The notes under the pieces are model-generated. The model saw nothing but the letters and a program-made list of their open reading frames with translations. It was not told the origin of the DNA and did not search any database. Position numbers and translations under genes: made by a program. DNA of 64,000 nucleotides from a virus. The stretch covers positions 5,310-69,309 of IMG/VR virus record IMGVR_UViG_3300021963_000105; one strand, 5' to 3'. Below are positions 23,015 through 63,330 of this stretch, piece by piece (position 1 is the stretch's first letter; each line of letters begins with the position of its first letter).

Positions 23015-23073
23015 AACTTTTCTAATGTTTAAGTTTGTATATATAAATACATAAAAAGTAAAAAATTAGAAAC

Positions 23074-23104: not shown

Positions 23105-23126
23105 CTTCTTATATAATTAGCGAATA

Positions 23127-26014: not shown

Positions 26015-26072
26015 TTTTTTATCTCTAAAATTCTATGTTTGTTATTGTGTAAAAGGTTTTCCAATTTACACA

Positions 26073-26080
26073 TATAAATA
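26073..26080 (-). promoter_or_regulatory. Putative late-promoter motif TATTTATA (representative copy, upstream of the sheath gene)
   Basis: The same intergenic motif (plus strand TATAAATA) starts at 3634, 6600, 11966, 22019, 23042, 26073, 26578, 35186, 46387, 46407 and 63277. Confidence 0.7.
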
Positions 26081-26087
26081 TAAACAA

Positions 26088-26133
26088 AATACCCAAAACA
26101 TAAATTTTATATTAAATATATGCTTTGGGTATT
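26088..26133 (-). terminator. Possible terminator between the fibre block and the sheath gene
   Basis: Inverted repeat AATACCCAAA...TTTGGGTATT with a long AT-rich loop. Confidence 0.45.
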
Positions 26134-26156
26134 AAAAATAATAATTTGTAGTACTA

Positions 26157-35208: not shown

Positions 35209-35652
35209 TTATGGTTTCTCCGGCCAAACTATATTAAAAGGGTCTGATTGGGATGTAATATCTCTCAAATCTTGTCTATATGATTGGTAGGAAGTTTTAA
35301 TACTTTCAGAAACATCTCCTAATTGTGTCCAATCACACTCTGATAATAACTGATTTCTTAATTCTCTAATTTCACTCCACTTTATTGCTAATCTTAATTC
35401 TTTTTCAGAATCAGATGTATTTGTTTGTACCCAATTTTGATAATAAATGCCATCCGTTAAAATTGGAGTTCCTTCCGATATATTTTTTGTATAATCGTTT
35501 GGCTTTTGGGTTTGTGTTACTTCAAATACACCAAACTCATTTAATGTTTCAGTAGGTATGTTTAACGGAAATGTATAAGTCTTATTATCTACTCTAAATT
35601 GTTGTAAAGAGTATGGGTATGTTATTTCGTTATCTATTATTCTTAAATACAT
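35209..35652 (-). CDS. Tail fibre assembly chaperone-like protein
   Basis: WSEIRELRNQLLSECDWTQL...YRQDLRDIT...IVWPEKP. Confidence 0.85.
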   Translation of the reverse strand: MYLRIIDNEITYPYSLQQFRVDNKTYTFPLNIPTETLNEFGVFEVTQTQKPNDYTKNISEGTPILTDGIYYQNWVQTNTSDSEKELRLAIKWSEIRELRNQLLSECDWTQLGDVSESIKTSYQSYRQDLRDITSQSDPFNIVWPEKP

Positions 35653-45500: not shown

Positions 45501-46367
45501 ACCGCTAAAATATCCACTTCCAGAAGGAATAACTATATTTCCACTTACAAATAAAGAACCAGTAAATGTAGAACCACTTGCAGCAGAAGTTACTAAAAAT
45601 CCAATATTTGGCGAAACAGACGCAGTTACACTACCGCTTGATATTAATGTTGCTAATGGTGCTTTTGGTAAATTAAATAAATTTGAGCCATCTCCATAAA
45701 AAGAACCAGTAAACGAACCACTAAATGATGAACCAGATACAATATTTGCTACTAATACATCTCTTATTCCAACACTACCAGTAAATTCTTGCTTATCAGT
45801 TGATTGGTCACCAAATATATTAGAACCAGATGAATAAATTATTGATGATGATATATACGATACTATAAGAGATTCCGCATATATTGATTCAGATACATAT
45901 AAATTACCTTGGATTGTTGTATCCGTATTTACAACTAATCCTAAATTTGGTGAAATTGATGCGGTTGCACTACCACTAGAAATACGAGGTGATGTTACAG
46001 ATGGTACATTTATTAATTGAGAACCATCTCCAGTAAATGAACCTGTAAATAAACCACCAAATAAACCACCAAATGAACCAGAAAGTACAGCAGTTCCTAA
46101 AAATGAACCACTAAATGAACCAGAAAGGTCAGCAATACCTTTAAATGAAGATGTTATTTCACTTAATACAATTTTTTGTGCAAATCCTCTATTACCATCA
46201 CTATCCGAAACTAAAATAGCCGGATTTGATTCTAAAGATGCCGAAAATGAAGGAACACCAAAGTTTGGTTCAACTTGGGATAAATCTACAAATTCGTATC
46301 TGTCTGATGTTACATTTTTAGGTCCTTTTAATCGAACTCTACCACTTAATAGATTGCTTATTGCCAT
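36561..46367 (-). CDS. Giant repetitive fibre protein (3268 aa)
   Basis: About 21 I.SGS.TAS..P..G repeats, two cupredoxin-like inserts, about 990 aa of GTS repeats and a compact C-terminal beta domain. Confidence 0.8.
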   Translation of the reverse strand: MAISNLLSGRVRLKGPKNVTSDRYEFVDLSQVEPNFGVPSFSASLESNPAILVSDSDGNRGFAQKIVLSEITSSFKGIADLSGSFSGSFLGTAVLSGSFGGLFGGLFTGSFTGDGSQLINVPSVTSPRISSGSATASISPNLGLVVNTDTTIQGNLYVSESIYAESLIVSYISSSIIYSSGSNIFGDQSTDKQEFTGSVGIRDVLVANIVSGSSFSGSFTGSFYGDGSNLFNLPKAPLATLISSGSVTASVSPNIGFLVTSAASGSTFTGSLFVSGNIVIPSGSGYFSGSGEGLFNIPLSALNVESLVASRIASGSATASIAPNTGFVVNTFSLFEFPVSASMFSGSGRGLFDIPISNLSGDASRIASGSVTASVSPNKGFVVQSAESGSHFTGSLFVSGGIEINSGSSYSGSGARLFDIPRSALTPDALLSTLIASASVTASVTPENGFLVTSIESGSTFSGSVTVVGNITIPTGSGYFSGSGAGLSDIPRSALTSDALISTEIKSGSVTASVAPNTGFVVKSAESGSTFIGNVAVSGSVSASFFIGDGSQLFNIPALTATLIASGSVTASVSPDAGFVVTSVQYGSIFSGSLFVSGGNIQVETGSFFSGSGAGLKDIPRSALTLDALISNEIKSGSVTASVAPNTGLLVTSVASGSTFSGSLFVSGNIVIPTGSGIFSGSGAGLFDIPQSALAFQINKIASGSATASIAPDTGFVVNTFANFEYSVSASMFTGSGKGLFDLPLSALSQEVFRIASGSVTASALPDRGFVVESVDKGSKISGSVDISGSVTINSGSYFVGDGRYLSNITLANLAIDSTKIFSGSATASISPDYGFNVNVDAFFTNNVSASAFTGSGEGLFNIPLSALSKEGYRIATGSVTASVDPIDGFVVNSISTISGSLIVSSSGWELSTSSLNTTFNVINDGASAYWFSGAASGSNPTLVLYQGVPYTFNIAATGHPFWIKTAPTTGTGNTYDLGVVNNGAANATITFTPPTGSPSNLYYICQFHSGMAGQIIIKEKYQIDPTIKFIGDTVVSGSLVVKNNITVPSSSYFVGDGRYLSNITLANLAIDSTKIFSGSATASISPVEGFNVNVPAFFTNTVSASMFSGSGKGLFDIPQSALASEVFRIASGSVTASVAPNTGLLVNAPAFFEYSISASMFSGSGAGLFDIPRSALTLDAQVSNQIASGSATASISPNKGLVVNTFTTISGSFVVSSSARPTPLDELPNTFDVINDGSSAYWFSGAASGSNPNLTVVRGGYYIFNINAIGHPFWINTASAVGNSNGYNYYATNNGVSSGTPITLVVPEDAPNTLYYNSENDVAMAGTINVVDAIYIPSEIKLVGDTRVVGVVTASVFSGSGAGLFDIPRSALTPDALVATLIGSGSVTASTSPDYGFKVISPDYSGSQVSGYGIILSGSTVVSGSVAAFTYYGDGSNLQNVQAAAAPRIQSGSVTASVAPDTGFLVTSVVSGSTFSGSVVVSGSVRAFTYFGDGSQLTGVIAERSGDTPRIASGSATASISPNLGLVSNVPMTITAGNASGSLIVSGSTLLSGSISASLYYGDGRGLFNIPAEALTNLQLDRIQSGSGRAIIDPQKLNVNVTVTASYFAGDGGGLFNIPANALQDLKLDRIQSGSVSAIISPNRGLEINTDTSIESGSLHVTGSIVVQSGSIIVQSGSRFVGDGSGLNNINIANLSFETFIMKSGSYTASISPDKGFVVNTSASIYGRTYSDFITTPELTASFAYSPHWSGSFNGTYTFNGAGIEASAEYNTLRYDTNRGYYIPQPETSLTETVPFSNASSVTIVHNLDIRYPMVQVYGTGSQDEMILPASILAIDNNTVQVTFSGLTSGHIVIGSGGSLINGTIQADRVIGTVLSSSHAITANYATIAGSVLGLNTASLEALVSASANAGQFVLNSQTASMTVLSASYARTASYALFAQNASNVDTANFVQNAQTASMLVGTASLAVSASYALTASYVLGGALTAEGFIKNEQTASMYVYSSSFASIAQYALNAQSIDTGSFLLNKGNQRFSGSLVITGSLDITGSVLVAEFYTGSNSQLVVTWDPTTKKLETRDVQQAAGTSGTSGTSGTSGTTGSDGTSGTSGTSGTSGTSGTSGIDGTSGTSGTSGTSGIDGTSGTSGSSGSSGSSGSSGSSGSSGSSGSSGSGGTSGSSGSTGTDGTSGTSGSSGTSGTSGTSGTSGTSGSGGTSGTSGSSGTRGSAGTSGTSGTSGTSATSGTSGTSGSAGSTGTAGSGGTSGTSGTSGTTGSSGTSGSSGIDGTSGSSGTSGTSGTSGTSGSAGSGGSAGTSGADGTSGTSGLDGTSGTSGTSGTSGSSGSSGTAGLAGTSGSSGTSGTSGTSGTTGSSGTTGSSGTSGTSGTSGTSGTNGTSGSSGSSGTSGTSGTSGTSGTSGTSGTDGTSGTSGTSGSSGTTGSDGTSGTSGTSGTSGTDGTSGTSGTSGTSGTTGTSGTSGTSGTSGTSGTDGTSGTSGTSGTDGSEGTSGTSGTSGIDGTSGTSGTDGTSGTSGTDGTSGTSGTSGTSGTSGTSGSDGTSGTSGLDGTNGSDGTSGTAGSSGTSAEGSSGTSGTSGTSGSDGTSGTSGTSGTSGSSGTSGVGTDGTSGTSGTSGTSGTSGTDGTSGTSGTSGTSGLDGTYFGSSGTSGTSGTSGIDGTSGASGSSGVSGSSGVAGADGTSGTSGIDGTFFGSSGTSGTSGTSGTSGTSGIDGTSGTSGESGTSGKDGTYFGSSGTSGTSGSDGTSGTSGLDGTSGSSGTSGTSGLDGTYFGSSGTSGTSGTSGSSGSSGSTGTNGTSGTSGLDGTYFGSSGTSGTSGSDGTSGTSGTSGTSGTSGTSGLDGTYFGSSGTSGFDGTSGTSGAGTSGTSGTSGTSGVDGTFFGSSGTSGFDGTSGTSGAGTSGTSGTSGISGTSGLDGTFFGSSGTSGTSGESGTSGTSGFAGTSGSSGTSGTSGLDGTLFGSSGTSGTSGTSGTSGSTGTDGTSGSSGTSGLDGTYFGSSGTSGEAGTSGTSGTSGAIGTDGTSGTSGTSGLDGTNFGSSGTSGTSGTSGTSGAGTSGSSGLLTLTGTTDNGLITLNGAAPNAAVESNLTFDGSTLTVTGVIQATGPVSASAFNIYTGGTPNLTSPTSLNIIATNGVNLSTSLSTTGFTTSTTFRETYSDLGSGSGASIDLSTANNFKRTFTGNGSISFSNAPAGKAFGFTLLAVNAGAYSLAWSGVNWVGGTPPILTSSGEDILVFYTFDGGTSYYGFVTGLNMN
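37149..40121 (-). repeat. About 990-codon Gly-X-Y (GTS/GSS/GxD) tract
   Basis: Continuous 9-bp periodic sequence with mixed synonymous codons. Confidence 0.95.
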
Positions 46368-46433
46368 TAGTACTTTCTAGCTTTGATATAAATATTCACA
46401 ATTACATATAAATATAATTGATTAATATTATCG

Positions 46434-47326: not shown

Positions 47327-50300
47327 TTATATTTGTAGTGCTAATGAGAACGGAGTTACTAATGAGAACAATGATTTACTAAATGTTCTACCAACTAAAG
47401 TTCCAGTAGCTTGGTTGATACTTAATCCAGTACCAATTCTAAAGTCACCATCCTGATTACCAGATGTGAAGTAAATTCTACCACCACCCAATTGAGTGAT
47501 TTCGTATGCCGGATTTGCAACACCACTACCACCTTGATTTGGAGGTAATGCTTTAAATGTTACACCTGCTCCGTTATATGAGTAGTCAATACCCGTTGCC
47601 ACAATTAGTGAACCAAATGATTCTAAAGGTGCTCCCGCCGCAATAAACTCTGCTCTTGTTCTTAAATATCTATTAGTTTCCAAAGTCTCTAATAGTTGGT
47701 CTCTAGTCACTGCAATTGCACTTCCGTATTGACCATTATAGTAAGATGATGCTGCCGCAATTGCTCTTTCATTTCCACCATATAATAAATCGGTTGCACA
47801 CGCATCTACAATTAAACCAGTATCACGCGAACAACTTGCCTCATTATATACTAAATATGGGAATGCTCCATTTGTGTATCCGATTGCTTTATCTTTTAAT
47901 TCTTGCTTTGAACCTCTTAACCTTGCAACAGCTGCTTTGCGTTTTGTACCAGGGAATACTAATTGAGTTTGAGTTACAATTTTCTCTGAAATACCTTTAG
48001 CATAATTAATACCATCCACAGTTTGTTTTTTCTGTCCAATCTGTCCGTTATCAGTATAAGATGGTTGGATTGCTACTGAAGGTATCTTATAATAGTAAGA
48101 ACCTGCCTCAATACTTCTTTCGTTACCACCATAGATTAAATCAGTTGCTACCGCATCTATAATAAATCCTAAGTCACGCGAACAACTTATTTCGTTGTAT
48201 TGTAATGTACTCCAAGACGAAGATAAGAACAATAATGTTTCTTTTTGGATAAATGATTTGTTAGCTACCAATAATTTCTTACCATATTCCGCAGATGCTG
48301 ATGGAATTAAGAATGTTGGGTTAGTTACAATTTTAGTTGATAATCTACCAGCATATCTTACACCAGTTACCGTTGGGTCTAATTGATTTTGCGTTGATGG
48401 AACTCCCTTATTAGTTGCATTTGATGGGAATAAATAGTAGTAAGTTCCAGCAGTTATTGCTCTTTCTTGTCCACCATATAATACATCCGTTGCTGCCGCA
48501 TCTATTAGGTATCCAACATCTCTACTACAAGAAGCTTGGTTGTAATAAACACCACTCCAAGATGAAGAAACATACTCAATTACTTCAGCTGCAATAAACT
48601 TCTTATTCTTTCTTAATAAATCAAATGATGCAGATGCTGCAGTTGTTGGTGTTACAAATGTAGTACCACTTACAACCTTTTGTGCAATTCTACTTGCGTA
48701 TTCAATACCATCTATTGTTTGTCCTAATTGTCCTACACTATCACCATCACCCAATAAAGTTGCTTTTGATGGATATTTGAAATAGAACTCACCACTCATT
48801 ACACTTCTTTCGTTTCCTCCGTATAATAAATCAGTTGCTACACCATCTACAATGTATCCAATATCTCTTCTACACTTATCTTTGTTGTAATCAAATGTAC
48901 TCCAACTTGCTGTTAGGTAGTTCATTGTTTCCTCCTGAATAAATGTTCTATTGTTTCTTAATAATGTTACAGATGCTGAAACAATAGTTGTTGGGTTTAC
49001 AAATGTTTTACTTTGTGCTAATTTAGTTGTCAAACCTTTAGCGTAATCTACCGCAGTTACAGTTGGTTCTAATTCAGCCGATGTTGCGTTAGATGGATAT
49101 TTGTAATAGAATATACCAGCTAATGCACTTCTCTCATTTCCACCATATAATAAATCGGTAGAAACCGCATCTACAATGTATCCTAAATCTCTAGCACAAG
49201 TTGCTTGTGAATAAGTAAACTCATTCCAAGACGAACTAACAAATGCTAAACTTTCACTTTGGATAAATGATTTGTTATTTCTAATCAAATTGTATGATTG
49301 AGATACTACTAATGAAGCAGTTTGGAATACTACATTTTGTAATACCTTTTGTGCTAAATTACTTGCGTATCTAATACCATCTAATGTTTGATTAAATTGT
49401 GATGATGTTGCAAATGATGCTGATTCAAAATAGAACTTACCATTTACAATTGAAGCGGATGCTACACCAAATAACATATCTTCCGCTGCTCCACTAATAA
49501 TCAAACCAACATCTCTCTTACATTTATCCTGGTCATATTGGAATCCACTCCAAGACGAACTCATATATGCAATAGTTTCATCTTTAATAAACTCAATGTT
49601 CTCCTTCAATAAGTTATATGCGTAATATACATTTGAAGCTGTTGATGGAGTTGAATAATTTGTTGGAGTTGGTATAGATGAACCAGTAGTTTCAACAATA
49701 TTATAAGTTATTGCAATTGATGCTGAAATTAATGATGCTTCGTAAGCAGTTCCAACTTCAGAACCAGTTACATATTGAGGTGTATTTGTCACCTTAATAT
49801 TATTGTAAGTATTATTTCTTACCAATGGTTCTGGGATTGTAATACTATTGATTACCGATGTTGATAATCTTCCAGCATATTTAATACCCTCAATTGTTTC
49901 AACCGATTGAGAATCAGTAGCTTGTGATGGATATTTATAGTAGAAGTATCCAGCTTTTGAACTTCTTTCGTTACCACCATACAATAAATCAGTTGCTACT
50001 GCATCTACAATATATCCCAAATCTCTAGCACACTTAGTTGATGAGTAATCTAAATTTGGATATTTTGCATCAATGAATGCAATACTCTCACTTTGGATAA
50101 ATCTCTTATTATCCAACAATAAGTTGTAAGCCGTAAGATTTCCAGCAGATGGAGATGTGTATGTTACATTATTTACCACATTTAATGCAGTTCCTTTTGC
50201 AAATCTCACACCATCTAATGTTGGGTCTAATTGTGCCGTTGTAGCTTGTGATGGATAATCATAGTAATATCTACCAGCAACAATACTTCTTTGGTTTCCA

Positions 50301-53300
50301 CCATATAAAAGGTCAGTTGCTACCGCATCTACGATATAACCAATATCTCTACTACAACTTGCTTCATTGTATTCAAACTCACTCCAAGAAGAAGATAAGT
50401 AAGCAATACTTTCACTTTGTATGAATCCTTTGTTAGCTTTTAATACTACAAATGATGCTGATGTTTGTAATGATGCGGATATGTGAGTTAATTTAATGTT
50501 TTGTACTACATTTTCAGCAATTCCACTAGCAAATTTCAAGGCTGTGATTGTTTGGTCTAATTGAGAACCATTAGCTTGTGATGGATACTCTAAATAGAAT
50601 TTACCATTTACTAATGATGCCGAATTACCACCATATAATAAGTCAAATGCCGAACCACTAATGATTATACTTAAATCTCTTTCACATTTTGTTTGGTTGT
50701 AATCAAATCCACTCCAAGATGAACTCATATATGCAATTGTTTCATCAATAATCATTTGTTGATTACCAACTAACAAATTGTAAGCGGAAGTTATTTTAGG
50801 ATTTCCGTTTGCGTTTGGATATGATGATGGTACATAAGTTTGAGAACCACTTCCGTTAGTAATTACATCAATTACCAATGCAAATGATGATGAAATCAAT
50901 TTACTTTGTAATCTAGCCGATGCACTACCACTAATAAGTTGTGGAGTTTCAGTTACCTTAATACCACCAGCATTATTTGATACATAAGTTGGTGCTACGG
51001 ATGTTCCGTTTTCAATTATGTTCAATATTGTAGCAAATGATGCTGAAATTGTAGTATCGTTTGCATCACTACTTCCAGTTGATGATGGTATTGGACTTAA
51101 TCCACTATTTGTAATTCCACCAAATGTATTTTCAACCAATGTAGGTATAGAACCAGTTCCATTTCCTATAATATCAGTAACAATACCATAAGATGAACTT
51201 ACACTAGCTGTTTCCGAATTATAAGTACCAGCTCCCAATGTTTGAGATACTGAACTTATGTGTAATAATGTTGGAGTTTCTAACTCAAATCCATAGTTAA
51301 AGTTTCCAGCCAATGCATCAGGTAATGAATCAGCTCCACCATAAATGATATCTCTGATTAAATTAAATGATGATGTTATTACACCAACCTCAACTGAACT
51401 AGCTGATATTGATGATGAATATTGTGTTACGTTTGTTACTTTAACCAAACTTTCAACATTTGATATAGTTGTTGGTTTAGCAGTTAATCCACCCTCAATA
51501 ATTTTAGTTACAATACTAAATGATGAAGATACATTAGTTACTTCAGTAGAACTTCCACTATTAGCAGATGTGAATTGAGTTACACCAGATACTTTTATGT
51601 TACCATCCGTATTTGATGTAATTACAGGAGAACTTAAAAGTATATTTTGTGCTACTTTCTTAGCTACCGCTTTAGCGTAATTAACACCATCAACAGTTTC
51701 TCTAACTTGAACTGCTTTAGTTGCTAATGATGGGAATCTATAATAGTAATCACCTGCAATAGAACCTCTTTCGTTACCGCCGTATAATAAATCGGTAGAA
51801 ACTGCATCTACAATGTATCCAACATCTCTTCTACATTTTGTTCTATTGTAAACTAAATCAGGATAAACTGCATCTATGTATTGGATTGCTTCGTCCTGAA
51901 TGAATGATTTGTTCTTTCTTAATAATTCAACCGAAGATGAAACATAGTAAGAAGCAGTTACCAATAATGTGTTACTAATTACTTTCTGTCCTAATCCAGC
52001 TGCAAACTTAATACCACTTATTGTTTGGTCTAATTGTGCATCAGGTGAAGCAAATCCTACAACAGTTGCTTTTGATGGATATAAGTAATAGTACTCACCA
52101 GCTTTTGAACTTCTTTGGTTTCCACCATATTTCAAGTCAGTTGCTACTGCATCTAAAATATATCCTACATCACGAGAACAACTTGCCTCATTATAGTAGA
52201 ATCCATCCACACCACTCCAAGAAGAACTTACATATTGAATTACTTCTTTTTGTATTAATGGTTTGTTTCTGAATAATAAATCATATCCAGCTAATTCAGA
52301 AGTTGTTGGTGTTGATAATAAAGTATTTCTTACAATTTTTTGTGCAATACCTTTAGCGTAATCAATACCTTCTAATGTTTGATTTAATTGCCCACCAGTA
52401 TCCCCATCGTTTCCAACAGTTGCTTGTGATGGATATAAGTAATAGTATTCACCAGCTTCTCTAACTCTTTCGTTTCCTCCGTAAAGAATATCAGTTGCTA
52501 CCGCATCTACAATATATCCAGTATCTCTACTACAACTTGCTTCGTTATAGTAGAACCCACTCCAACTAGCCGATACATATGCGATTGTTTCAGCTTGGAT
52601 TAATGATTTGTTTTGGAATAGTAAATCGTAAGCAGTTTGTTTTGATAAAGATGCTGATGTGAATGTTACATTTTGTAATACTCTTTCAGTAATTCCTTTA
52701 GCGTATTTGATACCACTTAATGTAGGTCCTAATTGAACATTGGTTGCGGTTGATGGGTATCTATAATAGAATTCACCAGCTTCAATTGCTCTTTCGTTTC
52801 CTCCATATACTAAATCGGTTGCTACTGCATCTAAAATATATCCAACATCTCTCTTACAAGTTGTTTCGTTGTAATCAAACTCACTCCAACTTGCCGATAC
52901 ATATGCAATTACCTCATCTGCGATAAAATCTTTGTTTTCGTAGATAAGTTGTTTAGCTTGTAATTTATTTTGAGTTACTTTTTGGAATTGCCCACCTCTT
53001 AATATTTTCTCCGCAAGATTTTTAGCGTATTGAACACCTGTCACAGTTTCTCTAATTTGAGAACCAGTTGCTTGCGATGGATATAAATAGTAGAATTTAC
53101 CAGCAGTTATACTTCTTTCGTTACCACCCCACTTGAAATCAGTTGCTACCGCATCTATGATATAACCAACATCTCTCTTACAAGTTGTTTGGTCATATTC
53201 TTTTGTACTCCAAGAAGAACTAATATAAGCAATAGTTTCATTTTGAATAAATTGTTTATTACTTACCAATAAATCATATGCTCTAATAGTTTGAGCTGAT

Positions 53301-56300
53301 GGAGAAACAAAAGGTGTATTTGTTATTAATTTTTGTGCTAATCTACTTGCGTAAATTACACCATCCAATGTTTGATTTAATTGTGCTCCTTGCGCTTGAG
53401 ATGGATATTCATAATAATATTTAGCACTTACAACTGATGCTGAATTTGAGTTGAATACCAAATCCTCCATTGCTCCACTAATAATCAATCCAATATCTCT
53501 TCTACATTTACTTTCATCATATGAAGCAGTACTCCAAGAAGATGATAAGTAAGCAATGGTTTCATCCTGAATAAATGTTAAGTTATTTTTTAATATTCCA
53601 TATGCTACCCACTTATTTGTATTATTGGTTGGTAGAATATAAGATGAAGTTGGTAATGCTAAATTACCTAATGTATTTGTAGTACCATTTGCTATTACAT
53701 TTGTTACAATTGAAATAGATGCCGATATTAAACCAACTTCCGTTGCAGTTGCAGATGAACCAGAAATATACTGCGGAGTTGCAGTTGTTTTAATGTTCAA
53801 ATATGTATTATTTGTAATAGTTGGTAATGAACCAGTTCCGTTTTCTAAAATGTTAATAACATAGTTGAAACTTGATGTTACACTTTTAGCTATTGATGAA
53901 GATATTGCAAATGATGAAGAGTATTGAACACTATCGGTTAATTTAACCAATCCGTTTACACTCTTAACCAAATTAGGTGTTGAACCAGTTCCAAATTCAA
54001 CAATATCTAATACAATATCAAAACTATCGTTTGAACCACTTATTAAATTATTAGATATTGAAGCAGTTGTAATAAATTGTGTAGTATTAGTTTGCTTTGT
54101 TGCAGATGTTGCGTTTGTTACAATAGTTGGTAGTGAACCAGTTCCGTTTTCAACAACATTTAATACAATATCAAACCCACTATCTACTTTATTTATTTCA
54201 GTAATTTGTGGTGTTATGAATGAAGTAGTTTGCGTACCACCAGTTATATTAACACCTTTATTTGTATTTTTTACAATAGTTGGTAATGAACCAGTTCCAT
54301 TTAATACAATGTTTATTACATTTGCAAATGATGCAGATACAATAGTTTTATCGGATGATGTTGCTGAATTGGAAGATGTATATTGAGTTTCCGAAGTTAC
54401 TTTAATTCCTTTTTGAGTGTTTTCAACTATTGTAGGAATTGCAGAACTTCCACTTAGGATTACTTTACTTACAATATCAAAACTTCTTTCAATTGCTATA
54501 TCACCAATTGATGCTAATTTAGCCAATTCTTTAGCGTATCTTAAACTATCAATTGTTTCAAATGCTTGAGAATCCGTAGCTTGGGATGGGTATAAGAAAT
54601 AGAATCTACCAGCAGTTATACTTCTTTCATTTCCACCATATACCAAATCAGTTAATACATTATCTAAAATAAATCCAACATCTCTTCTGCATTTAGCTGT
54701 ATTGTATTGTAATGCAGGATATGTATCTGAAATGTAATCGATTGTATTTTGTTGGATATAATCTCTATTTTCAAACACTAATGCTTTTGCATCCAATACC
54801 GCTTGAGATGGTTTAGAGAATACATTATTTACAACAACCTTTTGCGATAAAGCATTTGCTCTTTCAATACCAGTAATCGTTGGGTCTAATTGTTGAGTTG
54901 CCGATGGTACACCACCAACAGTTGCTGCAGATGGATATAAGTAATAGAATTCACCAGCTTTTGATGTTCTTTCGTTACCACCATAAACCAAATCAGTTCT
55001 AACTGCATCTATGATATATCCTACATCTCTCTTACATTTAGTTTCATCATATTGAACACCGCTCCAAGAAGAACTTACATAGGCAACTACCTCTTCAGCT
55101 ATAAATGTTTTGTTTAGAGATAGTAAATTACTTGCGTTTAATTTATTACTATCAGCAGATGTAAATGTTTGACCAACAACAATCTTTTGTGCCAATTTAG
55201 ATGCGTAATTTATTGCATCAGTTGTTTGGATTAATTGTGAACCAGTTGCTTGAGATGGGTATTTGTAATAGTAAACACCAGCTACTCTACTTCTTTCATT
55301 TCCACCATAATATACATCCGTTGCAACCGCATCTAAAATGTATCCTAAATCTCTTCTACAAGTTGCCTCATTATAGTCAAATGAACCCCAAGAAGAACTC
55401 ATGTAAGCGATTGTTTCATCCTTAATGAACTCTTTGTTGTTTTTCAATAAAACTGCCGCATTTTGGTTAGCATTTGGTGCCGCAACAAATGTTACATTTT
55501 GAATTATTTTTTGTGCTAATTTACTTGCGTAATTGATACCATCTAATGTTTGGTCTAATTGCCCATCGGTAGCTTGTGATGGATATTCATAATAGTATTG
55601 TCCATTTACTACCGATGCCGAATTTGCGTTAAATAAGAAATCTTCAGCTGCTCCACTAATAATTAAACCAACATCTCTTCTACACTTAGTTTCATCGTAT
55701 TGGAATCCACTCCAAGAAGAAGATAAATATGCAATTGTTTCAGCCTGAATAAACTCAATATTATTTTTTAATGTAGTGTAAACTAATGCTGAATTAGTTG
55801 CTGATACATAATTTGATTTAGGATATTCAGTATTTCCTGTTTCAATAATTTGAGTTACAATAGAAATAGATTGTGAAATAAAGTTTACATCTTCTAAACT
55901 ACCGCTTGTTGATGTTTGAGTTTCATTACTTACTTTTCTATGAGCAGTAACATTATCTACCAATGTAGGAACTACACCTAATCCATTTGTAATAATATCA
56001 ATAATAGTACCCATTGAAGAACTAATTGAAGCACTTTGAGCTCCAGTAGCTGCCGTTGATGATACTAATGATGTTGCTGTTACTTTTATGTTTCCAGCCG
56101 CAGATGATGTTATAGGTTGAATTGAACCTGTACCATTACTTATAATTCTAGCTACATAAGCAAATGATGATGAAATTGATGATGTTTGTGCAGTACTTGC
56201 AGTAGAACCAGTAGTTTGTAAACTATCAGTTACTTTTATTAATCCATTTATTGATGATGTAAATACAGGTTCTGCTGCAATTCCACCATCTATAATTTTA

Positions 56301-59300
56301 TTTACAATTTCAAAATTTCTATCAATTACATTTACTTCATTTGGTGTTGTATATCCATTTTGTATTTGAGTAATAGAACCAACATGCAATGGATTATTTG
56401 TATTCCAAACTTGAGAACTATTTTGAGCTACCAATGATGGAATTGCAGATACACCCCTTTTAATAATTCCTTCTATAATAGAGAATGAACTACTAATTGA
56501 ATTTTGATTTGCAGTATTACCAGAGAATGTAGATGTTACATTTGTTTCATTTGATACTTTTATTCCTCTTTCGGTATTTGTAATAATTTTTGGAGTATCT
56601 AACAACTGATTTGTAACAATATAATCTGCTAATATTTTTGCATATTTAACACCAGCTATTGTTTCTTTCTTTTGTTGTGTAGTTGCTATTGATGGAATAT
56701 CATAGTAATATCTACCTGAAGTTACACCTCTTTCAATACCTCCATATAATAAATCCGTTGCAACTCCATCTATAATATATCCAACATCTCTTCTACATTT
56801 TGTTTGATTGTATTTTAGGGATGGGTAAACTACATTAATGTATTGAATTGTTTCGTTTTGAATCAATTCTTTATTATCCAATAATAAGTTATATGCCGAT
56901 ATTGTTGATGAATTTGCAGATACGAATGTACTATTCATTGCTAAATTCTTAATCAAACCAGCCGCATATCTTACACCAGTTATAGTTTGCTCGGATTGAG
57001 TTGAAGTAGCTTGAGATGGATATTTGTAATAAAATTCTCCAGCTTGAATACTTCTTTCATTTCCACCATATTTGATATCAGTTGCTACCGCATCTAAAAT
57101 GTATCCAACATCTCTTCTGCATTTAGCTTCGTTATAATTAAATCCATCAAATCCACTCCAAGAAGAAGATAAAAATGCAATTGTTTCGTCTTGAACAAAT
57201 TGTTTATTATCTCTTATGTTATCCCAAACTTCATAATTATCAGTTTGTGGTGAAGTGTATGTTTTACCATTTAATAAGTTTATAGCCATTCCAGCTGCGT
57301 ATTTAACAGCAGTTGTTGTTGGTGCTAATTGAGTTGTAGTTGCTTCGGATGGAATTGTGTAATAAGTAATACCAGCTCTGATACTCTCTTCGTTACCACC
57401 ATATAAAAGGTCTTTTGCAACACCATCTATAATGTACCCAACATCTCTTCTACAAGTTGTTTCATCATATACAAAATCAGCCCAAGAAGAATTAACAAAT
57501 TCAATAACTTCTTCCTGAATGAATGATTTATTGTTTGTAAGAATTTCATATGCTTTAACTGTGTGAATATCGGTTTTAGCGATTGAACTACTAGCTATTG
57601 TTAAAGGATATGTTAATGTATTTTGTATTAAATATTCGGGTGTTGTTGATGAATTTACAATATCAAATGTACCCACCATATCTTGCGAATTATCCGCAAC
57701 ATAATATAATTTAGATGGTGCATTATATGGAACTTGGAATGTTATATTTCCAACACTATCTCCATTATTTATTACACCATTCATATAATCATACGCATCC
57801 GTAATTCCACTAATTGGTGCAGTTCTTATAAAAAATGGATAATTGTTTGGACCTACTGCCTCCGATGCCGAAACATAGAATTTGTAAGTTTCCCCTCTAA
57901 ATAATTTTATTGTAGGATTACCCTCAACCCCATCCCATGCATATGATGAACTATTAACATTTGTTATAGTGTATGCTCTTTTATGATTGGTAGGAATTAC
58001 TTCTATATTGCTCCCAGTACCATTTGCTAATATATTGTAAATTGTACTAAAACTTGCACTAACTTCATTTGTTTTTGCTAATGAAGATGATACACCCAGC
58101 ATAACTTGCTGAACATTTCCAGCATAAATTGTATTTTCATTATTAGAAACTAATGTTGGAATTGCACTTAATCCATTTTTAATAATATTTTGTATAATTC
58201 CAAAAGATGAACTAATTGAACCAGTCAAATTAGCTTTAGGAGTACCTATCGATATTGGTGATGTTTGTGTTGTTTTTATTAAATCAGCATTATTTGATTT
58301 AAAATTATACGAACCAGTACCATTGTTTAATATACTGATTGTTGCCGCAATTGATGCACTTATTTGAGTTAAATCGGAATTAGATGCATTAATTGAAGAA
58401 GTGATTTGAGTTGCTCCTAAAATATTGTATGGAGATTCTGCACTATATCCTTTATTTGAACTTTTTGCTAATAGAGTTGGGAAATTTGATGTTCCGTTTT
58501 CTACAATAGCACTAATCAAATTATAATCAGCCATTATCTCCGCAGTTTCGGATGCAGAGGCAGTGTATGATACATTTGTTAAACCAGCATTTGATTGAGA
58601 TATAGTTGTATTAACTCTAATACCTTCTGCTGTATTTAAGGTTGTTATAGTTGGTAATCCTTCTTCTAACCCACCTTTATTAAGAACATCAACAATTACA
58701 CTCCAACTATCTCTTACTCTTTGCTTTGATACCAAATCACCACCACTACCAGATATAAAACGAGAACCAGATGCGTACATACCATACAAACCAAACGAAA
58801 TGTTTGAGTTGTTTAGGGTAGCGTGTCCACCATTGTTTACTCTAATTGCATAGTATGAGAAGTTATTAAAGAAAGATACCAACTGAATGAATCCTCTACC
58901 ATTTACCAAACATCCCACACCATTTGGAGAAATCTGCGTATAGGCATCCAATACCATTGATGCCAAAGGTGATTCTGGGTGTACCGCATCTCCGTTTACA
59001 TACAATCCACCACCACCCGGCTTAATATCCTCATAAAGTTCCGTAAATGAGTTCTCCTGATTTGAAATCTGCGAGCAGTTCTGAATGTACGGAGAAGTTG
59101 TTATGAACGCTCCTGGCTGAAATGCAAAACCAAAACCTTTATCAGGATTTATTTGGTCTGGATACAACTCTAATCCACCAACCGTTACCTCCGCAACATA
59201 ACATCCACTATTTACCCAAAAAAGGTCTTCGTTTTTGTTTTGTGCTAATATCTTTGTAATACGAAGACCAGAACCCCAAATTGTTGAGTTCTTTGGAAGT

Positions 59301-59830
59301 ATTACGGGATTATCTTCTAAATATGTACCAGCTTGAACTCTAATTACATATCCGTTATATTTCGAACCACTATCTAAACCATATCTACCATCATAACCCG
59401 GCGTTGCCAATAATGATGCTCTTTTAATAGTTCTTAATGGATATTGTATCGAACGACCATCGTTGTTATCATCACCATCGGTGGATGAAACATAAAGAGT
59501 TGGAACATTTGCACCAAAATCTACCGAACGAATACCATCATATAAAGTACTATCAACTGATTTTAATGCATTTGATGCGGTTACAGAAAATATTGTATTA
59601 GGTGCCGATGTTTTAAGAGTACCATCAATAGTTAAAGAACCAGTAAGAAATACCGAACCCGTTATTTCACTTTTTGAACCTGTATCAGTTCCTAAAAAGA
59701 AACTTTGAGAAACTAATAAAGAGCCACTTATAATGACATTATTACCAACATTTAAGTCTTGCCCAACACTAAATGAGCTACTAATGTTTTGTTGTTCTTC
59801 AATTTGTTTACGAGGTATTAATCTTGCCAT
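47327..59830 (-). CDS. Giant virion structural protein (4167 aa): beta-helix-like head region plus 22 CxRD helical repeats
   Basis: YVSSTDGDDNNDGRS...PLRTIKRA and IRVQAGTYLEDNPV...IWGSGLR mark a pectin-lyase-like beta-helix start. Then 22 repeats of CxRDxGYIxDAVATDLxYGGNERS. Confidence 0.8.
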   Translation of the reverse strand: MARLIPRKQIEEQQNISSSFSVGQDLNVGNNVIISGSLLVSQSFFLGTDTGSKSEITGSVFLTGSLTIDGTLKTSAPNTIFSVTASNALKSVDSTLYDGIRSVDFGANVPTLYVSSTDGDDNNDGRSIQYPLRTIKRASLLATPGYDGRYGLDSGSKYNGYVIRVQAGTYLEDNPVILPKNSTIWGSGLRITKILAQNKNEDLFWVNSGCYVAEVTVGGLELYPDQINPDKGFGFAFQPGAFITTSPYIQNCSQISNQENSFTELYEDIKPGGGGLYVNGDAVHPESPLASMVLDAYTQISPNGVGCLVNGRGFIQLVSFFNNFSYYAIRVNNGGHATLNNSNISFGLYGMYASGSRFISGSGGDLVSKQRVRDSWSVIVDVLNKGGLEEGLPTITTLNTAEGIRVNTTISQSNAGLTNVSYTASASETAEIMADYNLISAIVENGTSNFPTLLAKSSNKGYSAESPYNILGATQITSSINASNSDLTQISASIAATISILNNGTGSYNFKSNNADLIKTTQTSPISIGTPKANLTGSISSSFGIIQNIIKNGLSAIPTLVSNNENTIYAGNVQQVMLGVSSSLAKTNEVSASFSTIYNILANGTGSNIEVIPTNHKRAYTITNVNSSSYAWDGVEGNPTIKLFRGETYKFYVSASEAVGPNNYPFFIRTAPISGITDAYDYMNGVINNGDSVGNITFQVPYNAPSKLYYVADNSQDMVGTFDIVNSSTTPEYLIQNTLTYPLTIASSSIAKTDIHTVKAYEILTNNKSFIQEEVIEFVNSSWADFVYDETTCRRDVGYIIDGVAKDLLYGGNEESIRAGITYYTIPSEATTTQLAPTTTAVKYAAGMAINLLNGKTYTSPQTDNYEVWDNIRDNKQFVQDETIAFLSSSWSGFDGFNYNEAKCRRDVGYILDAVATDIKYGGNERSIQAGEFYYKYPSQATSTQSEQTITGVRYAAGLIKNLAMNSTFVSANSSTISAYNLLLDNKELIQNETIQYINVVYPSLKYNQTKCRRDVGYIIDGVATDLLYGGIERGVTSGRYYYDIPSIATTQQKKETIAGVKYAKILADYIVTNQLLDTPKIITNTERGIKVSNETNVTSTFSGNTANQNSISSSFSIIEGIIKRGVSAIPSLVAQNSSQVWNTNNPLHVGSITQIQNGYTTPNEVNVIDRNFEIVNKIIDGGIAAEPVFTSSINGLIKVTDSLQTTGSTASTAQTSSISSSFAYVARIISNGTGSIQPITSSAAGNIKVTATSLVSSTAATGAQSASISSSMGTIIDIITNGLGVVPTLVDNVTAHRKVSNETQTSTSGSLEDVNFISQSISIVTQIIETGNTEYPKSNYVSATNSALVYTTLKNNIEFIQAETIAYLSSSWSGFQYDETKCRRDVGLIISGAAEDFLFNANSASVVNGQYYYEYPSQATDGQLDQTLDGINYASKLAQKIIQNVTFVAAPNANQNAAVLLKNNKEFIKDETIAYMSSSWGSFDYNEATCRRDLGYILDAVATDVYYGGNERSRVAGVYYYKYPSQATGSQLIQTTDAINYASKLAQKIVVGQTFTSADSNKLNASNLLSLNKTFIAEEVVAYVSSSWSGVQYDETKCKRDVGYIIDAVRTDLVYGGNERTSKAGEFYYLYPSAATVGGVPSATQQLDPTITGIERANALSQKVVVNNVFSKPSQAVLDAKALVFENRDYIQQNTIDYISDTYPALQYNTAKCRRDVGFILDNVLTDLVYGGNERSITAGRFYFLYPSQATDSQAFETIDSLRYAKELAKLASIGDIAIERSFDIVSKVILSGSSAIPTIVENTQKGIKVTSETQYTSSNSATSSDKTIVSASFANVINIVLNGTGSLPTIVKNTNKGVNITGGTQTTSFITPQITEINKVDSGFDIVLNVVENGTGSLPTIVTNATSATKQTNTTQFITTASISNNLISGSNDSFDIVLDIVEFGTGSTPNLVKSVNGLVKLTDSVQYSSSFAISSSIAKSVTSSFNYVINILENGTGSLPTITNNTYLNIKTTATPQYISGSSATATEVGLISASISIVTNVIANGTTNTLGNLALPTSSYILPTNNTNKWVAYGILKNNLTFIQDETIAYLSSSWSTASYDESKCRRDIGLIISGAMEDLVFNSNSASVVSAKYYYEYPSQAQGAQLNQTLDGVIYASRLAQKLITNTPFVSPSAQTIRAYDLLVSNKQFIQNETIAYISSSWSTKEYDQTTCKRDVGYIIDAVATDFKWGGNERSITAGKFYYLYPSQATGSQIRETVTGVQYAKNLAEKILRGGQFQKVTQNKLQAKQLIYENKDFIADEVIAYVSASWSEFDYNETTCKRDVGYILDAVATDLVYGGNERAIEAGEFYYRYPSTATNVQLGPTLSGIKYAKGITERVLQNVTFTSASLSKQTAYDLLFQNKSLIQAETIAYVSASWSGFYYNEASCSRDTGYIVDAVATDILYGGNERVREAGEYYYLYPSQATVGNDGDTGGQLNQTLEGIDYAKGIAQKIVRNTLLSTPTTSELAGYDLLFRNKPLIQKEVIQYVSSSWSGVDGFYYNEASCSRDVGYILDAVATDLKYGGNQRSSKAGEYYYLYPSKATVVGFASPDAQLDQTISGIKFAAGLGQKVISNTLLVTASYYVSSSVELLRKNKSFIQDEAIQYIDAVYPDLVYNRTKCRRDVGYIVDAVSTDLLYGGNERGSIAGDYYYRFPSLATKAVQVRETVDGVNYAKAVAKKVAQNILLSSPVITSNTDGNIKVSGVTQFTSANSGSSTEVTNVSSSFSIVTKIIEGGLTAKPTTISNVESLVKVTNVTQYSSSISASSVEVGVITSSFNLIRDIIYGGADSLPDALAGNFNYGFELETPTLLHISSVSQTLGAGTYNSETASVSSSYGIVTDIIGNGTGSIPTLVENTFGGITNSGLSPIPSSTGSSDANDTTISASFATILNIIENGTSVAPTYVSNNAGGIKVTETPQLISGSASARLQSKLISSSFALVIDVITNGSGSQTYVPSSYPNANGNPKITSAYNLLVGNQQMIIDETIAYMSSSWSGFDYNQTKCERDLSIIISGSAFDLLYGGNSASLVNGKFYLEYPSQANGSQLDQTITALKFASGIAENVVQNIKLTHISASLQTSASFVVLKANKGFIQSESIAYLSSSWSEFEYNEASCSRDIGYIVDAVATDLLYGGNQRSIVAGRYYYDYPSQATTAQLDPTLDGVRFAKGTALNVVNNVTYTSPSAGNLTAYNLLLDNKRFIQSESIAFIDAKYPNLDYSSTKCARDLGYIVDAVATDLLYGGNERSSKAGYFYYKYPSQATDSQSVETIEGIKYAGRLSTSVINSITIPEPLVRNNTYNNIKVTNTPQYVTGSEVGTAYEASLISASIAITYNIVETTGSSIPTPTNYSTPSTASNVYYAYNLLKENIEFIKDETIAYMSSSWSGFQYDQDKCKRDVGLIISGAAEDMLFGVASASIVNGKFYFESASFATSSQFNQTLDGIRYASNLAQKVLQNVVFQTASLVVSQSYNLIRNNKSFIQSESLAFVSSSWNEFTYSQATCARDLGYIVDAVSTDLLYGGNERSALAGIFYYKYPSNATSAELEPTVTAVDYAKGLTTKLAQSKTFVNPTTIVSASVTLLRNNRTFIQEETMNYLTASWSTFDYNKDKCRRDIGYIVDGVATDLLYGGNERSVMSGEFYFKYPSKATLLGDGDSVGQLGQTIDGIEYASRIAQKVVSGTTFVTPTTAASASFDLLRKNKKFIAAEVIEYVSSSWSGVYYNQASCSRDVGYLIDAAATDVLYGGQERAITAGTYYYLFPSNATNKGVPSTQNQLDPTVTGVRYAGRLSTKIVTNPTFLIPSASAEYGKKLLVANKSFIQKETLLFLSSSWSTLQYNEISCSRDLGFIIDAVATDLIYGGNERSIEAGSYYYKIPSVAIQPSYTDNGQIGQKKQTVDGINYAKGISEKIVTQTQLVFPGTKRKAAVARLRGSKQELKDKAIGYTNGAFPYLVYNEASCSRDTGLIVDACATDLLYGGNERAIAAASSYYNGQYGSAIAVTRDQLLETLETNRYLRTRAEFIAAGAPLESFGSLIVATGIDYSYNGAGVTFKALPPNQGGSGVANPAYEITQLGGGRIYFTSGNQDGDFRIGTGLSINQATGTLVGRTFSKSLFSLVTPFSLALQI

Positions 59831-60213: not shown

Positions 60214-60566
60214 ACAAATTTTTCTATATCACCATTTATTTTTACCTCATCCTCATCATTAATTGTATATGGGTCTCCAAATCTATCAAATTGAGGAAAA
60301 TTTTCTCTTTTAAATTTTATGTAAAAATCGTTATCAACCATTTCAAATACATAATCAATATCTCTTATAAATAATCCGTTTATAAAAACATCAAATCGTG
60401 CAGATGGTATTCTTAAAGGTTCTAATTTTAAAAATAAAGTTTTTACTCTAACACCATTAATTCTAAAAATCCAATAATATGGGTGCAATAAATCAAATGA
60501 TTCCAATATAAATTCATTTGGTTCATTTACTTCTTTCATTATACTTTTTAATCCAGTTACTTTCAT
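60210..60566 (-). CDS. Hypothetical neck-region protein
   Basis: 118 aa with ATGA overlaps at both ends. FDVFINGLFI...DEVKINGDI. Confidence 0.65.
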   Translation of the reverse strand: MKVTGLKSIMKEVNEPNEFILESFDLLHPYYWIFRINGVRVKTLFLKLEPLRIPSARFDVFINGLFIRDIDYVFEMVDNDFYIKFKRENFPQFDRFGDPYTINDEDEVKINGDIEKFV

Positions 60567-61630
60567 AGTTCTTGAAATTTACCAGTTATTGCAACTTCAT
60601 CTTGCTCATCTATTGCAAATGTTAATCCAATAAATGTAAATGTTATTTCATTTAGTGTACCATTATATGTATAAGTGTATAGAGATGGAGATATAAAGTC
60701 ACCATTTATATAAACTCTAAACCAGTTTACAATATCAAATACACCAACCAATTCGGATGGTAATATTGGTTTTTTAACATTAGTTAATTTTACATTACTT
60801 GAATTTACAAAAGTTGCCATTTGAGAACCTCTAACTGCTACAAAATCAATTACCTGTGCATATTCATTGTATAATGTTGGAGATGTAAATCCATTACCAC
60901 CACCAGTTAAATCAGTTTCAATACCAAATACAACTCTTTTTTTAGAATAATCTTGCTTAACAACAGGCTTTTTACCATGCATTTCTGGTAATAGATATGC
61001 ATTTACTGATATATTAAATGTTGTACGAATTACTCTTTCAGTTCCTTCTCCAACTTCTTGTTGATTTTCAAACGAATCTATTTTTGCTCTAAATCTAAAT
61101 CCATCTTGAGTTCCCCAATATCTATCACTAGCATATTGAAATTGTTCTACGATTTGATTCATATGTTCCGTAAATGATGTCCAAATCATTACTTCATATG
61201 TTACTGTTACATACGATGGCATTGCAATATGATATTGTTCGTATGTAGGTTTTGTATTATTTTGTAAACTAAATCTATCGTATCTATTTTTTTTAGAATA
61301 TTTTTTAAAAGTAGAAATTATTAATTGCTCTCTAAAATGCTCCATAGATTCATTTCTTTCTACGGTATTTCTTTTGAACATTACCAATGGTATTTGTATT
61401 CTACCCCTCTCATCTCTCAAATATCCATTTTGTCTAGCACCTTCCCATCTTTCAGCGTTACCATATATCAATGGAACTTTTACAGGTTTTTCATTTTCAA
61501 CTAATTCAGGAATTACAGTAGAACTCATATATTCAGCAATAGTAGAATCTATATCAATAAGTTTTACACCTTTGATAAATTCTTTTTCTATTGCTATTTG
61601 TTTAGCTCTATTTGTTTCTCTTATATCCAT
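60563..61630 (-). CDS. Tail terminator / sheath stabiliser (T4 gp15-like) with a C-terminal extension
   Basis: VKVPLIYGNAERW, IQIPLVMFKR, PSYVTVTYEVMIWT...MNQIVEQ, RVIRTTFNISVNAYLLP. Follows the neck genes. Confidence 0.7.
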   Translation of the reverse strand: MDIRETNRAKQIAIEKEFIKGVKLIDIDSTIAEYMSSTVIPELVENEKPVKVPLIYGNAERWEGARQNGYLRDERGRIQIPLVMFKRNTVERNESMEHFREQLIISTFKKYSKKNRYDRFSLQNNTKPTYEQYHIAMPSYVTVTYEVMIWTSFTEHMNQIVEQFQYASDRYWGTQDGFRFRAKIDSFENQQEVGEGTERVIRTTFNISVNAYLLPEMHGKKPVVKQDYSKKRVVFGIETDLTGGGNGFTSPTLYNEYAQVIDFVAVRGSQMATFVNSSNVKLTNVKKPILPSELVGVFDIVNWFRVYINGDFISPSLYTYTYNGTLNEITFTFIGLTFAIDEQDEVAITGKFQEL

Positions 61631-63249: not shown

Positions 63250-63330
63250 TTATATGTCTTCGTAATTGATGTTACATATAAATATAAAGAATCAAAAGAA
63301 TAGTGTTTGAAAAGATTTATCGAATCAAAT

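Follow-up and report, generated by a model that had tools for sequence, protein, structure and literature searches.

The window analysed here comprises the last 64 kb of the 69,309-bp virus record IMGVR_UViG_3300021963_000105 from IMG/VR (CheckV completeness 35%). On its minus strand, one open reading frame (ORF), 47327..59830 (-), encodes a protein of 4167 amino acids (aa; P0001). The profile matches of this protein, which comes from an uncultured aquatic jumbo myovirus, are those of a giant tail-fibre-type protein, the virion location being predicted from the names of its relatives. The protein contains 22 repeats which, on profile comparison, are true remote homologues of phycobiliproteins with the globin helices A, B, E, F, and G. 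Hence, the phage very probably has a fibre that consists of phycobiliprotein homologues in which the attachment motif is intact. Furthermore, a probability of roughly 0.5 is given to the reading in which the motif Cys of each domain carries a bilin made in the infected cell, as suggested by the conserved site, the bilin genes of relatives, and the neighbourhood of cpeT in cyanophages.

The motif C.RD was found 22 times, from aa 793 to aa 4000, always on the minus strand and within this single ORF. An earlier note made from the sequence alone had described 22 repeats with C-x-R-D in every one, and this was confirmed, with C, R, and D invariant in 22/22 copies. The extent that it gave (47640-57555) and its unit length of about 100 aa were slightly short; the repeat units were measured as aa 753-4070 (window 47621-57574), with a repeat length of ~108 aa. 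The motifs are spaced 108-118 aa apart within blocks and 170-395 aa between blocks. In the numbering of repeat 19 (r19), the residues Y36, C41, R43, D44, D55, Y71, S76, and T93 are invariant in all copies, and of the 26 Cys in the protein, 22 belong to the motif. Within the frame of the giant ORF the extended motif C.RD.[GS].[IL] was counted 22 times, against none in the remaining five, and the other 35 ORFs examined in the window have no C.RD. The copy quoted in the note, KDKCRRDIGYIVDGVATDLLYGG, is r19 (48650-48994 (-); Cys codon 48872-48874), and the side motifs listed there were all located in the translation, AFPYL in repeat 22, along with KYPNL and TIEGIKY (repeat 16). The protein identity of the copies to r19 was 33-54%, and a DNA-level tandem-repeat search of the window detected no array. 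Therefore, the copies are old and diverged rather than the product of recent slippage or of an assembly artefact.

Since helical bundles can reach high structural scores by arrangement alone, homology to phycobiliproteins was tested at the profile level. The phycobiliprotein set was obtained by a motif-derived pattern scan of bacterial genomes and then by collecting every PF00502 gene from three cyanobacterial genomes, for a total of 28 diverse subunits. For the phage set, the 22-copy alignment was searched against 1.84 billion representative proteins; 1338 matched at E up to 0.001, and the best 150 yielded 1273 near-full-length repeats. The comparison of the 1273-repeat profile with the 28 phycobiliproteins by hhalign reached 95.8% (P 6.5e-9), with repeat columns 4-103 lying on phycobiliprotein positions 38-146 and C/R/D on Cys84/Arg86/Asp87. 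A second comparison, of 94 cores (mostly from IMG/VR loci) with 27 phycobiliproteins, reached 93.3% (P 2.8e-7) over 101 columns; the two together cover only phycobiliprotein positions 36-146. Thus, the equation of C-x-R-D with the bilin-attachment site Cys84-x-Arg86-Asp87, proposed in the earlier note, held residue for residue in both comparisons. The reversed phycobiliprotein alignment gave 0.3%, the reversed and shuffled controls all stayed at or below 1.2%, and 20 column shuffles scored 8.3-15.5, against 50.8 for the real alignment. The first, middle, and last thirds of the repeat were each collinear with the phycobiliproteins (P 8e-4, 7.7e-7, and 1.8e-3), and once the ten motif columns had been removed the remainder was still collinear, with a score of 19.7 that exceeded every shuffle. 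The alpha-type motif K-C-x-R-D-I/V-G-Y was the closest, the alpha alignment reaching 94.4% vs 51.6% for beta.

Direct searches gave a weaker signal. PF00502 was absent from the seven Pfam families listed at E up to 1 for the whole 4167-aa protein, and on single repeats it matched 1/22, at E 0.14. Its curated gathering score (22.2 bits) was reached nowhere, be it in the protein, the repeats, the 69-kb record (no match), or the relatives, in which a PF00502-like signal of 12.2-14.8 bits was confined to the giant ORFs. A phmmer search of the whole protein against the PDB gave 0 matches; when the 22-copy profile was run against the PDB sequences by hmmsearch, 8/9 listed chains were phycocyanin alpha, matched at the Cys84 motif with E 0.27-0.76. 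So, of the PF00502 check on single repeats that had been proposed, the homology stood at the profile-profile level (93-96%), while the Pfam cut-off was not reached.

The fold was also predicted. An AlphaFold2 model of r19, made with the 22-copy alignment, was a five-helix bundle (predicted local distance difference test, pLDDT, 85). In a structural search against representatives (VIA), its top match was the allophycocyanin 8or7_A (Z 10.6, root-mean-square deviation 2.9, 103 aligned), jointly with the photocobilin globin 8j2y_B (Z 10.6), and the ApcE bilin domain 4xxi_A followed with Z 10.2 (deviation 3.3, 99 aligned). The leading matches (Z 9.5-10.6) also included a second allophycocyanin-type chain and a phycoerythrin (entries 8imk_G and 5aqd_M); colicin pore domains and sensor globins ranked lower. 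According to the caveat of the tool itself, a Z of ~10 is within the range that helical bundles attain from arrangement alone. Once again, the top 19 listed rows of a Foldseek search against the PDB were all phycobiliproteins, at E 0.25 or worse and with no match at E 0.001 or better. An ESM Atlas feature search returned no phycobiliprotein cluster, only phage-tail clusters at 0.85-0.88, below the trustworthy level. A globin-like fold with helices A, B, E, F, and G is thus predicted, and the best matches of the r19 model are phycobiliproteins and bilin-binding globins, as the earlier note had anticipated for its trimmed globin-fold domains. The N-terminal X-Y hairpin and the C-terminal helix H, which belong to the alpha/beta monomer and ring assembly of phycobiliproteins, are absent from the repeats.

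The poor scores of the single-sequence, Pfam, Foldseek, and ESM Atlas searches, and the middling Z values that helical bundles often reach, would also be expected if the resemblance were convergent or due to chance, a short motif having arisen in an unrelated bundle. This explanation was considered very improbable, given that two independent profile-profile comparisons agree over ~100 columns with all controls flat, that the collinearity extends over all three thirds and persists after deletion of the motif, and that the top structural matches are precisely phycobiliproteins and other bilin-binding globins.

The attachment site is under constraint. Over the 1273 repeats from 150 representative proteins, C41 was conserved in 96%, R43 in 96%, and D44 in 98%, together with D55 (99.7%), Y71 (98%), and T86 (91%; profile numbering), and in the 94-core set, with a mean column identity of 28%, C, R, and D were each still at 90% or above. 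The role of these Cys, Arg, and Asp residues in phycobiliproteins concerns the chromophore and not the fold. CXRD is described in PMC10151467, in the passages that deal with it, as the site at which bilins are covalently attached in phycobiliproteins and in BBAG-1/-3, these BBAGs needing no lyases. Nevertheless, D55 and Y71, the most conserved residues, are not phycobiliprotein features, which leaves room for a different or additional role of the site, and the phycobiliprotein-invariant R93 and Y97 are not retained, R93 being replaced by Asp.

These last observations would suit a fibre in which the phycobiliprotein-derived fold is a pure building block without chromophore, with C, R, D, D55, and Y71 holding together the trimmed bundle or its interface with the helix units described below. 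The conservation of D55 and Y71 above that of C/R/D agrees with such a role, as do the loss of the X-Y hairpin, helix H, R93, and Y97, the helix units that equal or nearly equal the cores in number and so suggest a structural pairing, and the many repeat-bearing phages without a bilin gene of their own. It is a possible explanation, although a somewhat doubtful one: the CXRD residues have a chromophore role in phycobiliproteins (PMC10151467, as far as its account of the motif goes), packing alone hardly accounts for a single Cys, unpaired and conserved in 96% of 1273 diverged repeats, in a protein that is extracellular, and the association of the repeats with cpeT, pcyA, and the pair of heme oxygenase (HO) and ferredoxin-dependent bilin reductase (FDBR) would be left unexplained.

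Alternatively, the Cys could perform other chemistry: it might bind a metal with the conserved Asp, or it might join domains or chains covalently (through a disulfide or thioether) and so harden the fibre once outside the cell. Each repeat has a single Cys, accompanied by the invariant acidic and aromatic partners D44, D55, and Y71, and C41, D44, I48, A51, D55, and Y58 are placed at i, i+3/4, and i+7, so that they would share one face of the predicted helix 38-58. However, some proteins have odd numbers of cores (e.g., 23 and 15), in which simple pairwise disulfides would not close, and the motif is identical to the bilin site, Arg and Asp included. As we also know of no precedent for such chemistry in a globin or phycobiliprotein fold, this possibility was regarded as quite unlikely.

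In the bilin-carrying reading, each domain would acquire a linear tetrapyrrole while still inside the infected cell and become covalently linked to it through the Cys of C-x-R-D. The HO and FDBR of the phage itself, present in the complete relatives, would supply the bilin; in cyanophages the host would do so instead. Either the bilin would attach autocatalytically, as it does to BBAGs and ApcE, or a CpeT-type lyase would assist, and the released virion would carry a chromophorylated fibre. More speculatively, the bound bilin might make the fibre light-responsive, gating adsorption, or photoprotective.

The search for bilin genes suggested in the earlier note gave different results in the record and in its relatives. 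HO, FDBR, and CpeT searches of the window's own record, 35% complete, found none. Five longer relatives, with sheath proteins 70-77% identical to that of the window, were also analysed, and an overlapping HO-FDBR gene pair was present in 4/5: in 3/3 of those at 100% completeness and in one that is 70% complete. The fifth, without the pair, is 52% complete. The FDBR of these relatives was closest to PcyA, with 97 bits, below the equivalog cut-off of 206 bits. In relative G004 (L230 643-2617) a heme oxygenase of 187 aa overlaps a PcyA-like bilin reductase of 209 aa, and the small ORFs beside them were not globin-like. Downstream of the pair in the same genome lie a coupled ORF of 124 aa, which belongs to no known family, and a gene for S-adenosylmethionine decarboxylase. 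Searches for psbA, hli, and nblA in the five relatives found none. The purpose of hemO-FDBR cassettes in phages of presumed non-photosynthetic hosts is called "enigmatic" in passages of PMC11480375, where BBAG-like globins are named as one possibility.

The repeat family was large, and the statement in the earlier note that similar repeats occur in cyanophage structural proteins proved right. A tblastn search with aa 2069-2736 against 50,697 phage records matched 174, namely Synechococcus phages (149), records named "Cyanophage" (16), Prochlorococcus phages (8), and one uncultured marine single-cell virus. In their annotations the repeat-bearing phage proteins are called tail, short tail fibre, or structural proteins, and none of the record or UniProt names among the matches listed mentions a phycobiliprotein relationship. 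BFVD models of cyanophage repeat proteins resembled the r19 model with TM scores of 0.7-0.8, and at least 582 matching stretches were found in IMG/VR. A search for free-standing single domains gave 19 short proteins, of which three were on contigs >8 kb and 15 on contigs <2.5 kb; the latter probably derive from giant genes as fragments. Openly licensed PMC papers and bioRxiv, supplements excluded, yielded no account of phycobiliprotein-like domains in phage virion proteins; cyanophage genome papers could list them in supplementary domain tables.

Bilin genes and cpeT were then related to the repeats in cyanophages. In S-PM2, a CpeT-like gene ends 1.45 kb upstream of a giant gene with 4-5 repeats; two giant ORFs of this phage together give 9 repeat matches, compared with 5 in P-HM2 and 3 in Syn9. 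With the CpeT of S-PM2 as query, tblastn matched 66 phage records, all of them cyanophages except one marine virus. Among the matches listed, 16/20 distinct repeat-bearing phages also have cpeT, always 2-6 kb upstream of the repeat match and on the same strand, the four without it being DSL-LC03, B23, B3, and S-B64. Six further cpeT phages were inspected, and in 5/6 the giant gene starts 0.3-1.8 kb downstream of cpeT and has 4-6 repeats; the gene adjoining cpeT in S-SCSM2R has no repeats. The gene order in Sf-CH3 is cpeT, three tRNAs, a 2OG-Fe(II) oxygenase, pcyA, and the giant gene, with pcyA directly in front of the latter. When five whole genomes were compared, the presence of repeats and of cpeT agreed in 5/5, P-HM2, Syn9, and S-PM2 having both and P-SSM2 and Mel-JY01 neither. 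Phage pcyA and pebS are called a mystery, and the role of cpeT unresolved, in parts of PMC3037559. Additionally, tRNA genes and a 2OG-Fe(II) oxygenase gene often lie between cpeT and the giant repeat gene in T4-like cyanophages (L001 3896-17211; L240-L244), and the RefSeq record of S-PM2 places 16 tRNA features inside the giant coding sequence, all with its locus tag (L001 8500-13327), which looks like a coordinate error.

Besides the unreached Pfam cut-off, the Z of ~10 that helical bundles can attain, and the residues D55, Y71, R93, and Y97 mentioned above, several observations weigh against a bilin-bearing fibre. Since the X-Y hairpin and helix H are missing, the bilin pocket may be incomplete. 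The window's own record yielded no bilin gene; the bilin genes of the complete relatives lie >100 kb from the fibre gene, CpeT was found in 1/5 relatives only, and CpeS in 0/6 records searched (the five relatives and Mel-JY01). No FDBR was found in the 44 other repeat-bearing records, which are fragmentary (7-71% complete, including one at 71%); this 0/44 fits the gene distance of >100 kb, yet it is also a plain negative. The 174 records with repeats stand against 66 with cpeT, and in P-HM2 and Syn9 cpeT is distant from the repeat genes. FDBR does not track the repeats either: P-HM2 and P-SSM2 have FDBR, the latter with no repeats, whereas S-PM2 and Syn9 show the opposite combination, repeats without FDBR. 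As these phages are related and T4-like cyanophages generally keep their synteny, the counts of repeats and cpeT are not independent. Finally, T-type lyases serve Cys-153-type and not Cys84-type sites, according to the sections of PMC10452541 concerned with them.

An extension of the bilin-carrying reading is that the fibre is the virion's own photoreceptor, in which absorbed light alters the fibre so that adsorption occurs only in light. This proposal was judged unlikely. Adsorption of P-HM1/P-HM2 and S-PM2 requires light independently of photosynthesis, and light-sensitive receptors or tail fibres have been suggested for it (PMC6628666, in the portions that treat adsorption). The light-requiring S-PM2 and P-HM2 carry the repeats and the dark-adsorbing P-SSM2 does not, an anecdotal agreement among three phages. 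If true, a photoreceptor fibre would explain the light-dependent, photosynthesis-independent adsorption of S-PM2 and P-HM2 as given in those portions of PMC6628666, the role of phage cpeT that a passage of PMC3037559 calls unresolved, and the bilin-synthesis genes of phages, hemO-FDBR cassettes included, that are termed a "mystery" or "enigmatic" in excerpts from PMC3037559 and PMC11480375.

The repeats are arranged in blocks, and a second kind of repeat precedes each block. These helix units of ~43 aa, with the pattern S-S-F-x-I-[IV]-x-x-I-I-x-N-G...P-T...I-K-V-T, occur in runs ahead of each block of cores (47621-58717); 21 were detected by a hidden Markov model (HMM) profile and one more candidate by eye. 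The N-terminal domain, aa 1-370 (58721..59830 (-), boundary by eye), contains neither kind of repeat, matches no Pfam family, holds 3 of the 4 non-motif Cys, and includes the best stretch (aa 112-216) for phrog_5342, "tail fiber protein". It is followed by the first run of helix units, aa 372-621 (57968..58717 (-)), with hmmsearch units at 423-456, 482-521, 530-570, and 580-621 and the extra candidate at about aa 372-412, seen by eye and unreported by the HMM. An inserted non-repeat domain of ~130 aa (aa 622-752, 57575..57967 (-)), read from the translation and without Pfam match, separates this run from the first core and so occupies the innermost position of block 1.

Block 1 comprises cores r1-r3 (56585..57574 (-); C.RD at aa 793, 904, and 1012). 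Spacer 2 (55805..56584 (-)) has five helix units (aa 1102-1144, 1164-1201, 1209-1251, 1260-1300, and 1309-1332) and leads to block 2, cores r4-r7 (54479..55804 (-); aa 1383, 1491, 1599, and 1714). The six units of spacer 3 (53627..54478 (-)) are at aa 1772-1812, 1821-1863, 1872-1914, 1923-1965, 1974-2016, and 2025-2068, the first beginning at aa 1772 within the tail of core r7, and block 3 then carries cores r8-r13 (51623..53626 (-); aa 2109, 2217, 2325, 2433, 2551, and 2666). Spacer 4 (50807..51622 (-)), with five units (aa 2757-2799, 2808-2848, 2868-2908, 2919-2960, and 2970-3014), precedes block 4, cores r14-r16 (49820..50806 (-); aa 3049, 3159, and 3267), and spacer 5 (49643..49819 (-)), with one unit (aa 3362-3393), precedes block 5, cores r17-r22 (47621..49642 (-); aa 3437, 3545, 3653, 3768, 3883, and 4000). 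The C-terminal domain, aa 4071-4167, together with the stop codon occupies 47327..47620 (-); its best phrog_3442 stretch, aa 4074-4165, matches the C-terminal end of that profile.

In order, the numbers of units and cores are thus 4(+1),3 / 5,4 / 6,6 / 5,3 / 1,6. In nine proteins in which this block grammar was counted, the window's included, units equalled cores in five and differed by one in four, among them that of the window; more distant family members showed alternating units and cores or unit-poor patterns. These equal or nearly equal numbers suggest that each core pairs with one upstream helix unit in nested order. A 311-aa piece (aa 1974-2284, two units plus cores r8 and r9) was predicted as one confident body (pLDDT 88.3, pTM 0.88), a model consistent with the pairing without being proof of it. 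Phycobiliproteins were again among its structural matches, and several of them span residues 34-307 with only ~105 aligned, which corresponds to the end of the outer unit followed by the second core.

The whole gene matches the PHROG profiles phrog_4527 "short tail fiber protein" (E 5.9e-205), phrog_5342 (E 4.5e-174), and phrog_701 "virion structural protein" (E 9.6e-72), and it sits in a myovirus tail module. Near it lies a gene for a T4 gp15-like sheath stabiliser (60563-61630, Pfam), and the module also contains the sheath gene (23678-26014), a fibre-assembly-like gene (35209-35652), and genes for an adaptor-like protein and a LamG protein. The four ORFs directly upstream of the giant gene gave 0 PHROG matches, and Pfam identified only the sheath stabiliser among them. 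No lyase-like or bilin gene adjoins the giant gene in the window. Two more giant ORFs are present in the same module, 26971-34476 (2501 aa) and 36561-46367 (3268 aa), with no C-x-R-D repeat and with 4 and 1 Cys, respectively. Near-identical DNA was found in at least 20 public runs from 12 studies with aquatic, pond, marine, or freshwater metagenome labels; among the runs listed, six contain at least half of the sampled words of the window DNA, and none is an RNA run.

The earlier note had also placed the phage in a Bacteroidota host on the basis of its promoters. The closest cultured relative was the Microcystis phage Mel-JY01 (sheath 46.9% and recombinase 55.0% identical), followed by an uncultured 484-kb phage and then by Flavobacterium phages. 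The pattern first used, TTG-N19-TAnnTTTG, gave 6 matches vs 2.2 expected, mostly on the non-coding strand. The pattern TTTG-N20-TAnnTTTG occurred 5 times in the window vs 0.72 expected, a number reached by 0/100 shuffles, and four of the five matches were intergenic and on the coding strand. In the three complete relatives it was found 29, 18, and 26 times on one strand vs 0-2 in controls; it was not enriched in S-PM2 or P-HM2. Promoter-like motifs of the form TTTGG..N..(C/T)GTAT(A/C)TTTG are located at 3653-3684, 3733-3764, 13272-13303, and 13718-13749, all on the minus strand, and precede an SSB gene, a polymerase-like gene, and a gene like that of transfer-messenger RNA (tmRNA). This motif may be a lineage-specific promoter. 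The same extended motif was observed in Mel-JY01, 6 times on one strand vs 2 and 1 in controls. The enrichment is therefore real, but, as a Microcystis phage shares the motif, it was not accepted as proof of the host phylum. Additionally, a tmRNA gene of 381 nt was detected by ARAGORN at 13318-13698 (-), with a 26-residue tag ending in YAVAA, and a second recurring motif, approximately TATATTTATATGT, was seen upstream of structural genes (26015-26156, 46368-46433, 63250-63330, and 23015-23126, all on the minus strand), where it may be a late promoter.

Phycobiliproteins and their relatives have been known as cellular antenna or bilin-binding proteins, and a large phage fibre-type family built from the same domain would now be added to them. 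It comprises 1338 representative clusters, the model cyanophages S-PM2, P-HM2, and Syn9 included, with the attachment site intact. With this family, phage-made bilins gain a candidate acceptor and the phage CpeT lyase homologue a candidate substrate; the roles of both are called unresolved in passages of PMC3037559, PMC2984593, and PMC11480375. The idea of a light-sensitive tail fibre behind light-dependent adsorption, raised in a part of PMC6628666, becomes testable in cultured phages. If no bilin binds, there would still be a clear recruitment of a host-type pigment-protein fold as a fibre module.

Compared with the phycobiliproteins (CpcA/B, ApcA/B, and CpeA/B; PF00502), the repeats have helices A, B, E, F, and G in the same predicted order, with Cys-x-Arg-Asp on helix E and a Gly at the end of that helix. 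They differ in being ~108 aa long instead of 160-175, in lacking the X-Y hairpin and helix H, in not retaining R93 and Y97, in having invariants of their own (D55, Y71, and T86 in profile numbering), and in forming 22 copies in one phage chain rather than alpha/beta subunits of a phycobilisome. ApcE attaches its bilin autocatalytically. It is likewise a large multi-domain protein with a phycobiliprotein-like bilin domain, although it is a cellular antenna component in which a single such domain is followed by unrelated REP linker domains. The globin domains of photoglobins and photocobilins provided one of the two joint best structural matches (8j2y_B, Z 10.6).

With BBAG-1/-3, compared here by the description given in sections of PMC10151467, the repeats share CXRD in a non-antenna, bilin-binding globin clade, and the complete relatives of the window also encode HO and FDBR, although the window's own record (35% complete) and the 44 other fragments gave no FDBR. 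Nevertheless, BBAGs are single small cellular proteins clustered with bilin genes, whereas the domains described here form fibre arrays, with the bilin genes of the complete relatives >100 kb away. A likeness was also found with the giant proteins of T4-like cyanophages (e.g., S-PM2 YP_195253, 3779 aa; PHROGs 4527, 5342, and 701), which have the same repeat family, predicted fold, and tail/baseplate module. Their copies are sometimes without the Arg, as in S-PM2, which has one C-V-D-D, and they number 3-6 among other domains, whereas the protein of the window consists of nearly nothing else than its 22 copies and helix units.

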